Virus record (IMG/VR): IMGVR_UViG_3300031857_000028
Location: 32,001-96,000 of that record
Source: a virus
DNA length: 64,000 nt
Reading direction: 5' to 3' (one strand)
Shown: positions 45,219 through 53,876 of the stretch, in pieces
How the letters are laid out: every line of letters begins with the position of its first letter
Numbering within the stretch: the first letter of the stretch is position 1
Notes under the pieces: model-generated
Databases searched by the model: none
What the model saw: the letters and a program-made list of their open reading frames with translations, nothing else
Told to the model about the DNA's origin: nothing
Made by a program: the position numbers and the translations under genes

Positions 45219-47864
45219 TTATGCAGTTGGGAATGTTGCACCAGTTGGGAGAACATTGAAATCAAGGATAATGAATTCAGCTGTTCTTGTTGGCTGGAGA
45301 TAGAGTTGTCCGTAGAGGATATTTCTATCAATGATATCCGGTGTATTGTTGGTTTCATCCATAATTACCCGGAATGCAAACAATCCACTGCGTTCTTGTA
45401 CACTTGCCAAATATGGATTGACAATATTTAAGAAACGATTTCGTGTGGCTTCAACGTTTTGTTCGAACACAAGGTAACGTGAAACACTGGCGATATATTT
45501 CTTAACTGCAATTAATAGACGGCGAACGTTTACACGGTCAAGTGCCGAAGCACGACGTTGAAGTGTCTTCTGACCCCACACACAGATACCTTGTCCAGGG
45601 AACTGTGCAATTGGGTTGACCTTTCCTTCATACAACGTGTCTCTACTTGTTTGTGGAAGTCGTACCTTCACACCCACTGCACTTGCAATACCACCACGGT
45701 TCAAACCTGCTGGTGCAAACCATTCTGCGGCAATATTGTCATTGTATGCGTAGATTTCTGGAAGAATAACTGAAGGTGGTACCCAAATCAACTTATTGGT
45801 ATTGGTATCAATTACTCTCAACCACGGATAATAAGTTGCTGCATAGTTACTATCAATTTCTCCTGCCTTAGCAGTTGCACTTGCAATTGTTGCGTTTAAT
45901 CCAGTAGTATCCATGATATAGAAGCAATCACCGCGGTCTTCGCAGAGACTTAGTGCAGTATCAGCTACATACGAGTGGAAGTCGTAGATAACGCCGGGCA
46001 ATATCAAGAGATTGAAATCCCATTGATCTTGATTACTCAATGCTTGTAATGCTTTCTTATAAGCCTTTGAGCCCGGTGATGCTGCATTTGCAAGATTAAA
46101 TCCTTGTGAATTGGTTGGAACGATGTCACCACCCATCTTAATATCACGTGCTGGATTTAATCCATCAAATCCGCCTTGGAATGGTACCGAGAACTTACGG
46201 TATGCCAAGCTATCGTTGTCCAATGAAATTGATGCAGAGAATTGTAATGAAGAGCCACTTGGTACTTCATACAATGTCTCCAATGTAAACGATGAATTTG
46301 GAACATCTACTGTATTTTCTGGGTCTGGGATTGCCCCGAGATACGATGGATTTGTTCCTTCGTTATCTGCAAAGTTCCACCCATAGTAGAAACGCTTATC
46401 AACCGATTCTGTTGTATATCCTTGCACACTTCCGTTTCTCCAACGTGATGTTACCAACGATGGACTCGTTAATTGTGTATTAAGAACCGTAACAGTCGAT
46501 TCCACTGACCCAAACCCAAACGGTAGTGCAGTTGCTGGAATTACTGCATCCGACATTTGTACATACACGTACTGTGAACGATTTGGGAAATCGCCTTGAT
46601 AGTAACGTTCTGCGGTATTTGGGTCATCGTATGGAGCGCTATCACCAATTACACGTGCAATAAATTGCGGACTATCTGGATCTAACGTGAGGTTATCATA
46701 CTGTTCTAAGACTTCAATACGTGCATCAGTATCATCATAACGACGAATTAACATGGAGAACGTTCCCCATGGATTATCTACGTCATCACTCTTCTTCATA
46801 TTTAAGAACGATGCCTTAATTTCCTTATTTGCAAAATTACCATCACTTAATGTGTGAAGTTTGAACAAATCAATCTTTGCACCAGCAATTGTCTGTGATT
46901 GAATCCATGGCGTGTGCGCATTTGCAAATCCAACGTCTGTGAAATTCAATGCTGCACTGGATGTTTCTGCGTACATCGTTACTGCTGCAGTTTGTCCTGC
47001 ACTTGTCAATTGGTAAGTTACTGTATTTAACGTTCCACTGTTACTTGAACTTACGATGAATACCACGTTCGTTGATGAAACGGCTGTATATTGAGGAAGT
47101 AAGAGTGTTCCGAAATTAATTCCAGAGCCACTGACAGTTGCTTGACTTAATTTTGTTGTGTCAATATTTGTTAATGATGCAACAGGAACTACATACTTGG
47201 TAAGACTTCCCGTAGACACTCCCGTAGGAACATCTCCAGTAGCTAATGATTGTGATGCTACAGTCAATCCTGAAACTGTTTGTCCACCCGCAGTTGCTTC
47301 TGTAACGGATTCTGGGAAGATTGCATATACAAATGAATTCTTCGTGGTTACTGGATTTGTGCCCAACAAATCGCCGAAATATGCTGTAGACGTTTCAAGG
47401 GTTGTTAGTCCACTTTGACTTACTGCCGTTCCGCCATCTGCCACGATATTAACAGAAAAACTACCACCAGTTCCCGACACTGCAATTGATTCAATTGTAT
47501 TGCCGATACTACTTGGGTGAACTACCGCAAACAATTTCTTGCCCGATGAACCCGATACATAAATTAAGCCGGGGACCGTTGTATCGTTATTGTATCCTTC
47601 CGTTCCTAATACACGAACAATAGTTGCTACGCCTGATTCACGTAAATAATTTTTTACTGTAAGCCCAGTATAGTGATTCGCGTCGGCTTCACCAAAAAGG
47701 GTAACATATTCCTGCTGACTTCTTACAATTGTTGGGATAAACGCTGGACCTTTGGGTGTCGGTCCAATAAATGCGCCCCCAATTTCACTAATACCCTGGG
47801 TTAAGAAACTTAAGTCTCTTTCCCGTGTGAAAACTCCAGGGGAAACAATTCTTTCATTTGCCAT
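45219..47864 (-). CDS. gp18: Tail sheath protein (T4 gp18-like)
   Basis: SPGVFTRERD, WFAPAGLNRG, WGQKTLQ, DRVNVRRL, FEQN, PTRTAEFI. Confidence 0.95.
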   Translation of the reverse strand: MANERIVSPGVFTRERDLSFLTQGISEIGGAFIGPTPKGPAFIPTIVRSQQEYVTLFGEADANHYTGLTVKNYLRESGVATIVRVLGTEGYNNDTTVPGLIYVSGSSGKKLFAVVHPSSIGNTIESIAVSGTGGSFSVNIVADGGTAVSQSGLTTLETSTAYFGDLLGTNPVTTKNSFVYAIFPESVTEATAGGQTVSGLTVASQSLATGDVPTGVSTGSLTKYVVPVASLTNIDTTKLSQATVSGSGINFGTLLLPQYTAVSSTNVVFIVSSSNSGTLNTVTYQLTSAGQTAAVTMYAETSSAALNFTDVGFANAHTPWIQSQTIAGAKIDLFKLHTLSDGNFANKEIKASFLNMKKSDDVDNPWGTFSMLIRRYDDTDARIEVLEQYDNLTLDPDSPQFIARVIGDSAPYDDPNTAERYYQGDFPNRSQYVYVQMSDAVIPATALPFGFGSVESTVTVLNTQLTSPSLVTSRWRNGSVQGYTTESVDKRFYYGWNFADNEGTNPSYLGAIPDPENTVDVPNSSFTLETLYEVPSGSSLQFSASISLDNDSLAYRKFSVPFQGGFDGLNPARDIKMGGDIVPTNSQGFNLANAASPGSKAYKKALQALSNQDQWDFNLLILPGVIYDFHSYVADTALSLCEDRGDCFYIMDTTGLNATIASATAKAGEIDSNYAATYYPWLRVIDTNTNKLIWVPPSVILPEIYAYNDNIAAEWFAPAGLNRGGIASAVGVKVRLPQTSRDTLYEGKVNPIAQFPGQGICVWGQKTLQRRASALDRVNVRRLLIAVKKYIASVSRYLVFEQNVEATRNRFLNIVNPYLASVQERSGLFAFRVIMDETNNTPDIIDRNILYGQLYLQPTRTAEFIILDFNVLPTGATFPTA

Positions 47865-47887
47865 ACGAATCCTCCTAATGGGTTATA

Positions 47888-48148
47888 TTATTCTGTTATT
47901 TCACCAGTTTCTATGTTTATTGTACCGGTTCCATAAGTTTGCTGCAGTTTTTCAAATAAAACCCTTTCTTTTTCTTGAAATTCTTCAAATGCCTTTTCCT
48001 GCGATTCCAATTGTTGATGTGCTTCGTCAATTTGACGTTCTAACATTTTTTTACTTAGGTGCAATTCACCAATGGATGTTAGGACGGTAAATAACGATTC
48101 TTTAAGATTTTGAATCTCTGCAAAATCTTCTTCAGCAATTTTTTTCAT
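47888..48148 (-). CDS. Small coiled-coil protein
   Basis: Heptad pattern; ends YGTGTINIETGEI. Confidence 0.65.
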   Translation of the reverse strand: MKKIAEEDFAEIQNLKESLFTVLTSIGELHLSKKMLERQIDEAHQQLESQEKAFEEFQEKERVLFEKLQQTYGTGTINIETGEITE

Positions 48149-48206
48149 ATAAACCTCTTTTTAAAGTAGTATACATATCATAAATATATAAAAAATATTC
48201 AAAACA

Positions 48207-49001
48207 TCACTTATTATTTGAGCTTACCAAAGATTCCGTGTCGAATACCACTTTTTTGGGTGAATATGCCAATCGACTTGTAAGTTGACGATTTCCGTTT
48301 TTATCCAACGCACTCTGAGGTAGTACATATGCCTTAACGTCTATAGTAAACTTACTACGGACCAATCTTGCCGCATTTGCAGGTAGATCAGTTATTTGTT
48401 CGAATTGATTAATCTTTGCTTTGAATTTAAAATTATTATCATTACCCCAGTATTCGTTACTTTCAAACGAAATATTTTCAACTACCTTATTCATTTGTTC
48501 CATAAATTCTGTCCAGATTAAACCTTCATAGGTTATATCGTAATAATCTGGAATTGATGTGACTTGATATCGTTCACTCGGTCGTACGCCATTTATTACG
48601 GCAAATCGGTCATACACGTTACGAGAATTCCAGCCCGTTTTAAACAAATATGTTTGATATTTGTTGGTTGGATTGTTTATGGCATTCTCCTTCATTCCCG
48701 TTCTACGAATCATCATAATTGGTAATTGAATCATTCCATTTGCATCACGTAATGCGCCATCAATTTGCGCACTTTTCCAACGCTCTGGATTACCATACAT
48801 TACTGGTACTTGAATTTGTTTTTTGTTCTGTGTTACAATTGGTTTTACTTTTGTTTGTAGGTATTTTATGATTGCCGTGTCAATTGTCTCCAAACCTATT
48901 GAAACAGGCGTACTATCTCCCTCATCAGATTTGGTATCATACCCTCTGTTTTGTCGTTGTGGGAGTATTATATTATTTCTATTAAAATTAGGAGCGGTCA
49001 T
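48207..49001 (-). CDS. Tail terminator / sheath stabiliser (T4 gp15-like)
   Basis: VPVMYGNPERW, LPIMMIRR, PDYYDITY; position between neck and sheath genes. Confidence 0.7.
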   Translation of the reverse strand: MTAPNFNRNNIILPQRQNRGYDTKSDEGDSTPVSIGLETIDTAIIKYLQTKVKPIVTQNKKQIQVPVMYGNPERWKSAQIDGALRDANGMIQLPIMMIRRTGMKENAINNPTNKYQTYLFKTGWNSRNVYDRFAVINGVRPSERYQVTSIPDYYDITYEGLIWTEFMEQMNKVVENISFESNEYWGNDNNFKFKAKINQFEQITDLPANAARLVRSKFTIDVKAYVLPQSALDKNGNRQLTSRLAYSPKKVVFDTESLVSSNNK

Positions 49002-49459
49002 ATGTGTGTTTCCTCAATATTAAACTCGGTTTTGCGAGTCAAGTGACATTCACACAATACAGTTTGATTATATTCGGGTCTAGATGCAATCAATTGCGCT
49101 TCATTTACGTTATTTATACCATAAAAATTATTATTATATTTTATAACGTCACCCACTTCTGGGTACACATCAACGTCGGCTAACAATTTTTTTACAAATC
49201 TAAATTCTACATCGGCCTGTTTTATGTTGTATCCAAAACCATCTTCGGTTTCTGCCGTTTTTTTCGGATACTTGATTAATGCATTTAAACTAATTCCTTT
49301 GTACGTTGGTTTTTCCGATGACTCTCCGTAAATATTTACTTTAACGATGTCATTGATAATTTTGTATAAAATGACTTCAACGTCAATCAAGTCAACGATA
49401 ATTTCCCTATTTATATGTTGAAAAAAGTCAAAGTCTCTCGTAGAAACAAAAATTGGCAT
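48998..49459 (-). CDS. Neck / head-closure protein (T4 gp14-like)
   Basis: NIYGES, YPEVGDVI; position after the gp13-like gene. Confidence 0.65.
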   Translation of the reverse strand: MPIFVSTRDFDFFQHINREIIVDLIDVEVILYKIINDIVKVNIYGESSEKPTYKGISLNALIKYPKKTAETEDGFGYNIKQADVEFRFVKKLLADVDVYPEVGDVIKYNNNFYGINNVNEAQLIASRPEYNQTVLCECHLTRKTEFNIEETHI

Positions 49460-49469
49460 AAACTATCTC

Positions 49470-50636
49470 TTATAAGATGTATATTGGAACAGGAACGTGT
49501 TGGAATATCTTATTCATTGACTCTACGCTTTCTAATTGCTTTTTCAACTGCATTTGATATCCCGTCTGTTCTAATGTTTCACGGATTTCATCGATTAACA
49601 ACTTTTTTTCTTGTTCGGCTTCACGGCGCAGAGTTTCTCCATCCAGACGAATTTGAGCTTCTGGGATTGGGATGTGTTCGTATTTTGACCGAATAAGTCC
49701 CAACAATTCTTTTGCTAATGCCAATGTGTAACGATAAATCCACAAACGTCCCATCTGATTAATGTTTCCATACTGAATATTATCATACGGGATATTTGAA
49801 AAGTCGGATACTACACTATTTTCTGAGCCCGACTGTAATACTCCTGCTCCAGACATTTTATCGTCCACCACCATATAATCAAACCAGACGATTGTATCTT
49901 TCGTAAAGATTGGCGAAAATCTAACGATATTGTTTGCTATACTAAAACTATACTGACTCTTACGAATCATATCGTTGATTTCAATTGCTTGAATACGAAG
50001 AAGGTCTTCGTATGCTGGCATCATTACGAAGGTTACCGGTGGTGAGTACCCATCAAATCCAAATTCACTCATAAGATTGGTTAACCCAAGACCCGTTGTT
50101 GCAAATGGGTCATAGTACCGAGCAATCGCAGGTGGCATATTATGATATATTTTTCTGATTTCAATTGTCTTTCCACTTTCACTTACATCTGCCCACAATG
50201 TTTTTAAATCATATGCCTGTTGATAGGCAGTTGCTTTAATATATCCTTTTTTCATAGAAACGTTTCCACCACTCTCAGCTTCTGTACCATAGTGTGCCGA
50301 CAATTTTACAAGTTGTGGAAGTGGACTACTTACAATATTACGTTGTGTTATATTTTGAGAGGTACTCATTCCTTGTACTGCCAGCATATATTCACGTGCA
50401 TTAAACTGATTCACTTGATTACTATATGTGGTAATGGCTTCTTCAAAACAAGCGTAAATTTGTTTATGTGTAAGTTCTACGTCAACCACAGGATATCCCA
50501 ATCTACGTGCCACAAATGTGGCCAATTGTGGTCCTTCCGTTTGGAATTCTACATCGTTATCATAAAATCCAAATGGTGTGAGATTATACGGATTTACTGG
50601 GTTTTCTTCAAAAACAATCGGTTCACGGTTTTGCAT
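49470..50636 (-). CDS. Neck / head-tail adaptor protein (T4 gp13-like)
   Basis: RRLGYPVVDVEL, YTLALAKELLG.IRSKY..IPIP...LDG. Confidence 0.8.
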   Translation of the reverse strand: MQNREPIVFEENPVNPYNLTPFGFYDNDVEFQTEGPQLATFVARRLGYPVVDVELTHKQIYACFEEAITTYSNQVNQFNAREYMLAVQGMSTSQNITQRNIVSSPLPQLVKLSAHYGTEAESGGNVSMKKGYIKATAYQQAYDLKTLWADVSESGKTIEIRKIYHNMPPAIARYYDPFATTGLGLTNLMSEFGFDGYSPPVTFVMMPAYEDLLRIQAIEINDMIRKSQYSFSIANNIVRFSPIFTKDTIVWFDYMVVDDKMSGAGVLQSGSENSVVSDFSNIPYDNIQYGNINQMGRLWIYRYTLALAKELLGLIRSKYEHIPIPEAQIRLDGETLRREAEQEKKLLIDEIRETLEQTGYQMQLKKQLESVESMNKIFQHVPVPIYIL

Positions 50637-50659
50637 AAAAGCCCTCTATTAGAGACATA

Positions 50660-50667
50660 TATAAATA
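50660..50667 (-). promoter_or_regulatory. Putative late promoter TATTTATA
   Basis: Between the capsid terminator and the neck gene start. Confidence 0.65.
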
Positions 50668-50685
50668 TCAAATTATTTACTATAA

Positions 50686-50714
50686 AAATAAAAAGGGTGA
50701 CCCGAAGGTCACCC
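50686..50714 (-). terminator. UUCG-loop intrinsic terminator after the major capsid gene
   Basis: GGGTGACC-TTCG-GGTCACCC-TTTTT on the minus strand. Confidence 0.9.
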
Positions 50715-50745
50715 AATTTATTTTTTACGTTACGAAAAAATCGTA

Positions 50746-52356
50746 TTAGACGAGTGCAAGCTTGTCGATGTAGATCTTTGCGAAGAATTCCGGACGGACA
50801 ATCTTCTTGGCATAACGTGTCATCACGCCACGGCGTGGTGTGAAGTTTGCTGGGTCGTACACAAGTGGTGTCATGATTAATGGAATGTATGGGGCATAGA
50901 CTGCACCAGTTTCCAAGAACTGATTGCCACGGAAGCCCATGAGCATTACGTTTTCCGTCATGTATGGGTTCTTGTATACGGTGAAGCGGTTCTGGAATGA
51001 ACCAATCTTCGTGATACCGGCTGCAAATTCCATCTTGTCACCATCTGTTCCGGCTGCAAAGCCAGGGATGGTTTCAAGAATTGTTGCAACTGTTGGTGAA
51101 ACAACTGCAAAGTTTGCACCACCACGCATTGTAAGTTGGTGAATACGGTTTGACACCTTTTGCATCTTCTGACCAAGTGTTTGGTACCAGGTCATGTTTG
51201 TCCATGCTGTTCCCGTGAAGGATGAAGCTTGGAAGTTTGAACCGTTCCATACTGAACCAATTTCTGCTGACCAGAAATCAACCGTTGGTGCTGCGTTGAT
51301 TAACATGTCAAGGATTTCAAGGTCAATTTCCATTGCAACATAGTCTGACAACATACTTGTCAATTCTGCTTCTGCATCAACTGAGTGGTATGCGTTCAAG
51401 TCTTGTGCAAGTTCTGGTGACCATACTGCCTTCAACTTACGTGTCTTGGCAACGATGGTTTCACTCTTGAGTTCCAAATCAATTTCTGGAATGTTGAGGT
51501 CTGTACCGTCATCCAATCCCGTACCTGCTGCCGAACCACGAATTGGGTCACGATCTTCGAAGTCACCACGAGCTGTGTCAACCGGTTGCTTACTGAATTG
51601 TACACTCGTAAGTGTCTTGCCTGACGCCACTGCCGTGTTAACGACGAATGTGATGTTTGTTCCATCATACTTGGTGAATTCAGGTAATACTAATGATGCA
51701 AAATCAACTCCTGAACCACTTGGTACGAATGAACGAATTGCCAAGTAGTCTGGGTTTGCAAATGCAGTCTTTGCAACAACGAACTTGGAAAGACTTCCAG
51801 TTGCTACGAATGCATCATTATAGTTAACATCGGCAAATGATGCAGATGCTGCTGATACTGATACCGTATTTGACGTTGCATTGTTGATGGTATAACCAAA
51901 ACGACCTGCACCATACAAACCACCCGTGTTCGTGTTACCGAATCCGCCCCATGTTGAAGCAGCTGCAGTACCATAAAGTGATTCGTTTGCTACCTGTCCG
52001 TTACGTGTACTTCCGTACTTGAAGTCCATGTAGAAAACCAACCCTGCTGGGAGGTTCATTGGTTGTACTGAAACGAAGTTCTTTGCTGCAATTGAACCGA
52101 AGACCTTACGAACTAATGGAAGTGCTACACCGGCCCATTGTTCGCCGGTTGCACCGGCTTGGTTGGTCTTACTGTTTTCTTGGAGAAGTTGTGTTGCTTG
52201 GTTTTCAAGCATCACAGCCATACCCTGCTTTTCATATCCCTTCAAGCCTTCCAAAAGGCCTGAACGTTCCCACTTACCTGCCAATTTACGGGTTTGGTCA
52301 ATCACATGCTTGTGAGCTGTTCCCGCTTCGTTAATAAAATCTTGTACATCTGACAT
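50746..52356 (-). CDS. gp23: Major capsid protein (T4 gp23-like)
   Basis: VSVQPMNLPAGLVFY, AKTRKLKAVWSPELAQDLNAYHSVDAEAEL, YAPYIPL, FTPRRGVMTRY. Confidence 0.97.
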   Translation of the reverse strand: MSDVQDFINEAGTAHKHVIDQTRKLAGKWERSGLLEGLKGYEKQGMAVMLENQATQLLQENSKTNQAGATGEQWAGVALPLVRKVFGSIAAKNFVSVQPMNLPAGLVFYMDFKYGSTRNGQVANESLYGTAAASTWGGFGNTNTGGLYGAGRFGYTINNATSNTVSVSAASASFADVNYNDAFVATGSLSKFVVAKTAFANPDYLAIRSFVPSGSGVDFASLVLPEFTKYDGTNITFVVNTAVASGKTLTSVQFSKQPVDTARGDFEDRDPIRGSAAGTGLDDGTDLNIPEIDLELKSETIVAKTRKLKAVWSPELAQDLNAYHSVDAEAELTSMLSDYVAMEIDLEILDMLINAAPTVDFWSAEIGSVWNGSNFQASSFTGTAWTNMTWYQTLGQKMQKVSNRIHQLTMRGGANFAVVSPTVATILETIPGFAAGTDGDKMEFAAGITKIGSFQNRFTVYKNPYMTENVMLMGFRGNQFLETGAVYAPYIPLIMTPLVYDPANFTPRRGVMTRYAKKIVRPEFFAKIYIDKLALV

Positions 52357-53660: not shown

Positions 53661-53876
53661 TCAATTATCGTAATGTTTTTGTCGTGCGGCTCTACGTTCT
53701 TCACGTTTTCTACGACGAAGTGCCTCTTGACTCTTAAATTTTTTCTTTTTTGATGGTTTTAAGAAATGTTCTCTGTTTTTTAACTCCTGCATAATTTCAG
53801 ATTTCTTAACCATCTTGGTGAATTGTTTTAATGCTTTATTCAATTCATCCTTGCCATCGTTAACTTTAATAAACAT
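53661..53876 (-). CDS. rpsU: Ribosomal protein bS21
   Basis: IKV...ELNKALKQF.K......E...REHFLKPSKKKK, 71 aa, basic. Confidence 0.85.
   Translation of the reverse strand: MFIKVNDGKDELNKALKQFTKMVKKSEIMQELKNREHFLKPSKKKKFKSQEALRRRKREERRAARQKHYDN

Follow-up and report, generated by a model that had tools for sequence, protein, structure and literature searches.

A capsid insertion domain copied into the tail sheath protein of freshwater T4-like phages and patchily retained

Introduction

How does a segment of the major capsid protein come to recur inside the tail sheath protein of the same phage? The question arises in a 64-kb window (the whole stretch of DNA analysed here), which forms part of a 145,753-bp (∼146-kb) phage record in IMG/VR. 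The source is an uncultured T4-like freshwater phage, and the distant named kin of the record are Flavobacterium phage immuto, Microcystis phage Mel-JY01, and RM378. A sequence-only reading of the window had paired two 56-residue stretches, one from each protein, and proposed that a surface domain had moved between head and tail genes. The coordinates and peptides that it quoted are accurate; both segments are encoded on the minus strand. The analysis below supports such a move and sharpens it to one old copy from capsid to sheath. The literature searched does not mention a sheath domain derived from a capsid protein.

Results

The tail sheath gene and its extra domain

The tail sheath gene (gp18-like, 881 aa) occupies positions 45219..47864 on the minus strand. 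Its product carries the Pfam domains Phage_sheath_1 and Phage_sheath_1C (PF04984, E = 3.5e-13, 50.2 bits, curated cut-off 31.4; PF17482, E = 1.7e-09, 38.1 bits, curated cut-off 26.9) and matches PHROG 23, tail sheath, at E = 3.5e-73. T4 gp18 structures matched aa 6-114 weakly, and aa 668-879 aligned to T4 gp18 aa 441-652 with an E value of 1e-39. With both Pfam domains and a T4-alignable C-terminal core, the protein is a gp18-like phage tail sheath protein.

The sheath insert, a 97-aa copy of the capsid I domain, spans aa 193-289 (46998..47288, minus strand), and the translated 56-aa core within it spans aa 216-271 (47052..47219, minus strand). Compared with sheaths of ∼780 aa that are ∼90% identical on both flanks, the insert is a clean indel. 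Similar heptapeptides, TAGGQTV and TSAGQTA, flank the insert in the window and leave 7 aa of play in the placing of its boundary. We rejected these as direct repeats mediating deletion: in the window they agree at only 12 of 21 nt, and they are absent from the other long sheaths. On either side of the insert lie the sole two blocks alignable with the T4 gp18 core (sheath aa 6-114 and 668-879), and by this position it counts as an additional (non-core) sheath domain as defined by Evseev et al., 2022 (PMC9230969). The sequence-only reading had placed it at a variable surface insertion, and it does fall in the region of the exposed domains, where the sheath and the conserved T4 core cannot be aligned. 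By analogy with T4 and the published surveys, the insert probably faces outward on the sheath, and it would be dispensable for contraction.

The capsid gene and its segment at the I-domain position

The major capsid protein gene (gp23-like, 536 aa) occupies positions 50746..52356, minus strand. Its product matches Pfam Gp23 (PF07068, E = 1e-73, 249 bits, cut-off 24.4), and T4 gp23 structures (8gmo, 6uzc, 5vf3) aligned to aa 72-127 and 279-517 at E ∼1e-29. It is a Gp23-type HK97-fold major capsid protein. The two T4-aligning blocks bracket the site of the T4 I domain and its linkers (layout in PMC9546572). The globular segment that served as donor of the sheath insert (aa 158-263, the range aligned by hhalign; 51568..51885, minus strand) falls between them, inside the T4-unaligned aa 128-278, and its translated 56-aa core is aa 184-239 (51640..51807, minus strand). 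The segment thus occupies the T4-type I-domain position, which is E-loop-equivalent and has the conserved N-terminal strand block on one side and the block running into the spine helix on the other. Ahead of the segment comes a Gly-rich stretch (aa 128-157; 51886..51975, minus strand), outside the hhalign range and without a copy in the sheath. This stretch is probably the positional equivalent of T4 I-domain linker 1, which in T4 comprises aa 132-160 (PMC9546572).

The capsid segment is the most variable part of the protein. It is found at the equal position in the capsid proteins of immuto, Mel-JY01, LR756508, and RM378, and since all relatives have it, we regard it as ancestral in the capsid protein.

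Homology of the two segments

Our recount of the pair of 56-residue cores reproduced the 23 of 56 identities counted earlier by hand. Composition-adjusted BLASTP of the whole sheath protein against the whole capsid protein gave 26 of 71 identities with an E value of 9e-11. The Smith-Waterman score of the segments was 133 vs. 32 ± 5.8 for shuffled sequences (z = 17; 2000 shuffles, top shuffled score 67), and that of the whole proteins was 137 vs. 47 ± 7 (z = 13), so that the similarity is significant in the shuffle statistics proposed as a check. Profile alignment by hhalign of seven sheath inserts against ten capsid segments reached a probability of 98.9% and an E value of 3.7e-17 over 99 columns, and extended the match from 56 aa to sheath aa 193-291 and capsid aa 158-263. 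The 9-10 capsid proteins of the group all match every long sheath at 30-46% identity, sheath inserts reach 48-56% identity with some capsid proteins, and one capsid protein (P0249) was matched at E = 1e-11 against 5.8e9 proteins. Sheath and capsid copies are now ∼36% identical, with 21 columns conserved in both families, among them the polar or glycine positions D, K, D, S-G-S, T, N, and Y.

We rejected concerted evolution or recent gene conversion as the source of the likeness. The sheath and capsid copies from any one genome do not make up its best-matching pair, and DNA-level similarity is negligible, with a best run of 27 nt.

Distribution and history of the sheath copy

Of 121 sheath cluster representatives, 12 have the insert, and these are spread across the sheath tree. 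No phage with the insert is in culture, and candidate hosts would be Bacteroidota of the lakes sampled in JGI 3300006484 or 3300032116. Homologues lacking it, a search for which had been suggested by the sequence-only reading, make up the other 109, and some of them, such as the P0007-type sheath, are ∼90% identical to the window sheath on both flanks. It was also looked for in the sheaths of the named relatives immuto, Mel-JY01, and RM378 and is absent from all three; the immuto sheath has an unrelated insertion at the site.

In the segment tree, the 12 sheath inserts are monophyletic (support 0.998). Their clade groups with 120 freshwater capsid segments (0.81), while the capsids of immuto, Mel-JY01, LR756508, and RM378 fall outside; it is sister to the sampled freshwater segments, not nested among them. 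The capsid proteins closest to this clade so far are of the P0247 and P0249 type. Because of this sister position, and because the 0.81 support comes from ∼100 columns, the copying event can be timed only roughly. On the sheath core tree, the presence and absence of the insert require at least eight state changes. Homing-endonuclease genes lie nearby and might mark points of exchange. The 12 diverged copies contain no stops and no frameshifts. Mean pairwise identity is 61.6% for the insert, 64.5% for other exposed sheath parts, and 57.6% for the capsid I domain. The two segments are homologous, the transfer ran from capsid to sheath, and the sheath copies have a single origin, have been patchily retained, and are under constraint.

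Predicted folds

Sheath and capsid segments were modelled in isolation and from separate alignments. AlphaFold gave a pLDDT of 83 and a pTM of 0.74 for the sheath insert; the capsid segment was modelled with low confidence (pLDDT 63.7). The order of strands and helices matches between the two models, within the low confidence of the capsid one. Their top-50 PDB lists from VIA have 22 entries in common, all weak small-beta-barrel matches, and the best BFVD (viral) match is identical for both. The two segments thus appear to share one fold.

With 76-103 residues aligned, VIA-align gave best Z scores of 4.4-4.5 (sheath copy) and 5.4-6.1 (capsid copy); these are under the level that the tool calls meaningful, and identities are 2-15%. 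The best matches of both models are the six-stranded beta-barrels of ZneB (3lnn), EmrA (4tko), and CusB (3ne5), Upf1 1B, and FAD-binding barrels. The likeness to the membrane-fusion, Upf1, and FAD barrels is one of general arrangement and carries no evidence of kinship or function. Among the weaker VIA matches (Z 3.8-4.0) are a carbohydrate-binding module and tailspike or receptor-binding domains of phages. Foldseek returned nothing from the PDB at E ≤ 0.001, and one Ig domain appeared among its matches at E = 2.3. T4 gp23, gp24, and gp18 are not among the VIA-align matches of either model, and gp23 and gp24 are not among the Foldseek matches, the capsid model being of low confidence. With gp23 and gp24 missing from the structural matches, the equivalence of the capsid segment to the T4 I domain is one of position.

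Discussion

We consider it quite probable that the sheath insert goes back to a single old copy of the capsid I domain, patchily kept since, and that it forms a small, barrel-like, outer, and dispensable domain. A single in-frame duplication, in an ancestor within the freshwater T4-like phage group, would have placed the globular part of a gp23-type I domain, without its linkers, in the variable outer part of the sheath gene. The copy may now be a self-contained small beta-barrel-like domain of ∼97 residues, and many later losses or swaps would have left it in about one sheath lineage in 10.

In T4, the I domains of gp23 and gp24 (Fang et al., 2022, PMC9546572; gp24 crystal structure 1YUE) are flanked by the same conserved blocks as the window capsid segment, which also shares a preceding Gly-rich, linker-like stretch. 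However, the sequences of the window segment and the T4 I domain show no detectable similarity, the window region is ∼60 aa longer, and T4 gp18 has no I-domain copy. Like the extra sheath domains surveyed by Evseev et al., 2022 (PMC9230969), including T4 gp18 domains I and II, the insert lies between N- and C-terminal core parts, is beta-rich with short helices, and is variable and dispensable among close relatives. The extra sheath domains described so far are mostly Ig-like sandwiches of unknown source (PMC9230969), whereas the insert looks like a small closed barrel, and its donor can be identified as the phage's own capsid protein. There is also a likeness to the promiscuous Ig-like, FN3, and Big_2 domains (T4 Hoc, PMC10385173), in that a small beta domain occurs on head and tail proteins, has been added without disturbing the protein core, and is patchily distributed. 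Unlike those, it has no Ig-like Pfam match and is found in two protein families of one phage group, and its capsid copy is integral to the major capsid protein and not part of a decoration protein.

As to function, our tentative preference is that the domain contacts a neighbouring subunit and, by adding lattice contacts, cements the extended sheath. The T4 capsid I domain rests on the neighbouring subunit and adds lattice contacts in this manner, as a clamp (PMC9546572). A simple reuse of the clamp interface is disfavoured, since its partner surface would differ between sheath and capsid subunits. A near-neutral passenger is rather unlikely, and weak adhesion to surfaces and a common docking site, taken jointly, are somewhat better placed and still doubtful. 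The repeated loss of the insert indicates that a working tail does not need it, and as most phages have the capsid copy alone, the sheath copy is unnecessary for the role of the capsid copy.

The sequence-only reading had suggested that head and tail might display the same docking site or modification target. In this alternative the common origin stands, and the purpose of the copy is a binding surface shown on both structures, the partner being a decoration protein, a fibre, a modifying enzyme, or an environmental or host glycan, comparable to the Hoc and Ig-like adhesion domains. The polar and glycine positions kept in both families despite the low overall identity are consistent with it, as are the adhesion role proposed for extra sheath domains (PMC9230969) and the weak fold matches to carbohydrate-binding and tailspike or receptor-binding domains. 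However, the conserved polar residues occupy turn-like motifs and might have a purely structural role, neither Pfam nor PHROG nor structure comparison gave a significant match to lectin, CBM, or Ig families, ∼90% of related phages manage without the sheath copy, and the analysis turned up no partner gene. We therefore regard a shared binding surface as unlikely, if worth keeping in mind. With similar reserve, the I domain might be a portable, self-folding module for lattice contacts or binding, with the same role on two unrelated assemblies. If so, the sheath copy would bridge sheath subunits as the capsid copy bridges capsid subunits, or the tail would show a binding surface that the head presents 900-odd times, with one common partner. 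Presence and absence of the domain among co-occurring phages would then reflect selection on virion stability or adsorption.

Other origins for the sheath copy fare less well than duplication from the capsid gene. Both genes could have taken one mobile module from a third source, neither being the donor, and the sister position of the sheath clade would fit such a history. Phage structural proteins are well known to trade small beta domains (Fraser et al., 2006, as cited in PMC9230969). The search for further carriers speaks against a third source, which we judge improbable. We found no third copy by tblastn of the window or in the whole 145,753-bp record, and a region search covering 5.8e9 proteins (484-1542 aa long) revealed no third family beyond sheaths and Gp23 capsids. 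When the sheath insert was run through exhaustive phmmer against 1.84e9 representatives, it gave four matches, one of which (P0126) is a true capsid fragment. We treated the other three (an Ig V-set concatemer, a PPC-rich repeat protein, and a fibre-like repeat protein) as spurious, because their scores sum many weak repeats around an SGSG..F..L-like motif. At E ≤ 10, no Pfam family matched the sheath segment and only a chance-level match was obtained for the capsid segment; the ESM Atlas search gave no usable match. In these searches the domain thus occurs in just two protein families of a single phage group and does not behave as a general mobile module. In addition, the positional conservation of the capsid segment out to RM378 implies that it is old and vertical there, and the sheath copies sit nearer to freshwater capsid copies than to the capsid copies of more distant relatives.

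A transfer in the opposite direction, from sheath to capsid protein, would be suggested by the symmetry of the pairwise match alone, and is most improbable: every capsid examined has the segment, even where the phage's sheath lacks it, and the sheath copy is limited to 12 of the 121 representatives. Chance or compositional similarity of Ser/Thr/Gly/Val-rich beta segments, or an assembly chimera, can practically be dismissed, for although S, T, G, and V abound in both segments and the sheath segment summed weak matches to repeat proteins such as the Ig V-set concatemer, the z scores of 13-17 and the BLASTP and profile E values contradict it, and the match recurs in 12 sheath and >120 capsid sequences from independent JGI, ENA, and Logan assemblies.

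The extra outer sheath domains of large phages are of largely unknown source and role, and here the donor of one can be named. A copied capsid domain is one route by which tail sheaths gain such domains, and an insertion domain integral to a capsid protein is able to fold and endure in an assembly of quite another kind. The finding leaves the understanding of contraction and of capsid assembly unchanged. A compact, graft-tolerant domain of 97 residues is of interest for phage display and engineering. Its natural presence and absence among ∼90% identical sheaths offers matched variants for testing the role of an extra domain, and insert-bearing and insert-less sheath forms were both found in one sample, JGI 3300006484.

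Sheath and capsid genes and the homology between their segments

The tail sheath gene (45219-47864, minus strand; gp18-type, 881 aa; Pfam Phage_sheath_1 and Phage_sheath_1C; PHROG 23) and the major capsid gene (50746-52356, minus strand; gp23-type, 536 aa; Pfam Gp23 at 1e-73) lie in a part of the window where every gene is encoded on the minus strand. Gp13-, gp14- and gp15-like genes are found between them, and the sheath gene is followed by that for the tube, an order repeated in related contigs. The source IMG/VR virus record is 145,753 bp long (completeness estimate 76%; the window is its bases 32001-96000). The closest named phages, Flavobacterium phage vB_FspM_immuto (53% identity between capsid proteins), Microcystis phage Mel-JY01, uncultured phage LR756508 and Rhodothermus phage RM378, are all distant. 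Much closer relatives number in the hundreds in metagenomes, many of them freshwater.

The sequence-only reading had aligned a sheath peptide (47052-47219, aa 216-271) with a capsid peptide (51640-51807, aa 184-239). Both peptides are exact translations from the minus strand, and its hand count of 23 identical residues in 56 positions was confirmed. In the shuffle check that it had proposed, the segment score of 133 was 17 SD above the mean of 2000 shuffles (best shuffle 67), and whole-protein shuffles gave a z of 13 for the sheath-capsid local score. BLASTP of the full proteins with composition adjustment returned a single significant match (sheath 216-284 vs. capsid 184-254, 26/71 identical, E 9e-11). 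A profile of 7 sheath inserts and one of 10 capsid segments, each built on its own, aligned over 99 columns with 98.9% probability (E 3.7e-17). We concluded from the BLASTP, shuffle and profile statistics that the two segments are true homologs. The homology runs from aa 193 to 291 in the sheath and from aa 158 to 263 in the capsid protein, approximately twice the length first proposed. Both families conserve 21 columns, among them D-V, T-x-S-L-x-K, D, S-G-S, F, L, T, N and F-I-V. A third copy was absent from both the window and the whole 145,753-bp record.

The sheath insert was modeled from sheath sequences only (7 rows; mean pLDDT 83, pTM 0.74); the model shows, in order, five main strands, a number of short helices and a helix at the C-terminus. 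The capsid segment, modeled from capsid sequences only (10 rows), gave a weaker model (pLDDT 63.7). Mapped through the sequence alignment, the strands and short helices of both match almost one-to-one. A Foldseek search of the models against the PDB gave no match at E<=0.001, and with best VIA-align Z scores of 4.5 (sheath) and 6.1 (capsid) neither model has a convincing PDB match. The two VIA-align top-50 lists have 22 entries in common, most of them barrels of six strands (ZneB, EmrA, CusB and BesA, which are membrane-fusion proteins, the barrel of Upf1 and FAD-binding barrels). In a viral model library, UPI000018F68D (523 aa) was the first match for both (probability 1.00 and 0.99, TM about 0.53). 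Different predicted folds had been named as evidence against a common domain; based on the element order, the common VIA-align entries and the same first viral match, the folds agree within the reach of the tools used. The RM378 capsid protein has the same length as UPI000018F68D, 523 aa.

Location of the segments in the two proteins

Solved T4 gp23 aligns to capsid aa 72-127 and 279-517, leaving the intervening residues unaligned. In T4 gp23 the gap between these blocks holds the I domain, which makes surface protrusions and rests on the neighboring subunit in the same capsomer, and its two long linkers (PMC9546572); the gap is ∼60 aa shorter than in the window capsid. A Gly-rich stretch (aa 128-157) opens the gap and lies outside the segment common with the sheath. 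By position alone, the segment would be the globular I domain without linkers. The immuto, Mel-JY01, LR756508 and RM378 capsid proteins all have it at the equivalent position, with recognizable motifs P-E-Y/F-T and G-T-x-I/V-T-F-V/I-V, so it is an old part of the capsid gene that was passed down vertically. It is also the most diverged part of the capsid protein across these relatives.

Sheath proteins fall into two length classes, ∼880 aa (12 of 121 cluster representatives) and ∼780 aa (109), separated by one clean indel between the motifs ..IFPEAVT.A and ..VTM.AETSS. The indel defines a 97-residue insert (aa 193-289, window 46998-47288, minus strand). In the proposed check of sheath homologs in relatives, it was absent from these 109 representatives and from the Mel-JY01 and RM378 sheaths. 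At this site the immuto sheath (295-2424 of its fetched locus, L002) carries an unrelated insertion (about aa 150-260); the site is apparently a hot spot for domain gain. T4 gp18 could be aligned only to sheath aa 6-114 (weakly) and 668-879, blocks that correspond to the conserved core. Exposed, non-essential domains of T4 and other phage sheaths fall outside the core (PMC9230969), and since only the core blocks align to T4 gp18, the insert is likely located in this exposed region. In LR756508.1 (202511-207202, 484-kb uncultured phage), the sheath match covers ∼3.5 kb in two pieces and the longest open frame is only 808 aa. This gene may therefore contain a very large insertion, carry an intron or intein, or be frameshifted.

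Direction and age of the copying

Each capsid protein of the group shows 30-46% identity to each long sheath, regardless of whether its own genome carries the insert. The sheath and capsid copies of one genome are not each other's best match, and DNA-level similarity of the segments is negligible, so recent gene conversion or concerted evolution was rejected. A segment tree (about 117 columns) was made from the 12 sheath inserts, 120 freshwater capsid segments and those of immuto, Mel-JY01, LR756508 and RM378. The sheath inserts formed one clade (support 0.998), which joined the freshwater capsid segments (0.81) with the four named phages outside. Some capsid representatives lie nearer to the sheath inserts than does the capsid protein of the window (P0247, 53-56% identity; P0249, P0209 and P0187, 48-51%), with E down to 1e-11 in a region search of 5.8 billion proteins. 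Neither this search nor an exhaustive phmmer search (1.84 billion representatives) found the domain outside these sheaths and Gp23 capsids. The few other matches were repeat proteins scoring by the sum of weak repeats, such as P0125 and P0128 (an Ig V-set concatemer and a PPC-rich protein, made of 13-14 repeats), which matched via an S-G-S-G-x-x-F-x-L-like motif and were judged not to be homologous. Most simply, these sequences point to a single in-frame copying event, with a capsid gene belonging to this group as donor and the sheath gene as recipient, later than the divergence from the named relatives. The proposed domain movement between head and tail genes is supported, in the direction of capsid to sheath.

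Patchy retention and constraint

The 12 long forms are scattered on the sheath tree (739 columns, insert region left out), requiring at least 8 state changes (shuffled labels: mean 11.6, minimum 9). On both insert flanks the window sheath is 89-92% identical to the insert-less representatives P0007, P0008, P0012 and P0013 vs. only 77-86% to other long forms. Long and short forms occur in one sample (contigs L010 and L015, both JGI 3300006484). Divergence of the insert follows that of the remaining sheath (r 0.71), which fits descent that was mostly vertical and punctuated by repeated, precise losses. Swapping of the insert by homologous recombination between co-infecting relatives is also possible. 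GIY-YIG and NUMOD3 homing-endonuclease-type genes are variably inserted in relatives, at places following the prohead protease, in the capsid-gp13 interval and in the sheath-tube interval (L011:2052-2723; L012:2068-2739; L012:13298-14200; L014:12411-13187; L017:6555-7181); the window carries none at these places. It is a speculation that homing endonucleases could drive local gene conversion, including exchange of the sheath insert.

None of the 12 sheath copies contains a stop or frameshift. In seven genomes that carry both copies, pairwise identity averaged 61.6% for the insert, 64.5% for other non-core sheath regions and 78.7% for the rest of the sheath as a whole (capsid: 57.6% for the I domain, 89.5% for the rest). 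By these identities, the insert is under constraint like any exposed structural domain.

Possible function and novelty

We tentatively prefer a role as a lattice clamp, in which the copy would add contacts between neighboring sheath subunits. This is based on the T4 I domain, which lays onto the neighboring subunit and locks the capsomer (PMC9546572), and on proposals in the literature that the tail is cemented by additional sheath domains, together with a contact in phage 812 (PMC9230969). However, the partner surface on the sheath would differ and most relatives are without the domain. A somewhat less probable function is a binding surface for glycan adhesion or a docking site common to head and tail. 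It would be compatible with the polar positions that are conserved and with the presence of the insert in some co-occurring phages but not in others. A near-neutral passenger domain is less likely still.

It is already known that sheaths gain outer domains and that small beta domains are common to phage head and tail proteins. Our literature search found no description of a sheath domain that originated from the integral insertion domain of a phage's own major capsid protein; here the capsid-to-sheath event is well documented at the sequence level.

Two small genes were also observed near the sheath and capsid genes. An 86-aa ORF without a Pfam family (47888-48148, minus strand) lies directly upstream of the sheath gene, its position and length kept in all related contigs. 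In the head module, a 71-aa bS21 ribosomal protein homolog (53661-53876, minus strand; Pfam PF01165) is encoded with the scaffold and capsid genes immediately downstream of it, and 9/9 related contigs fetched have this gene in the corresponding position.
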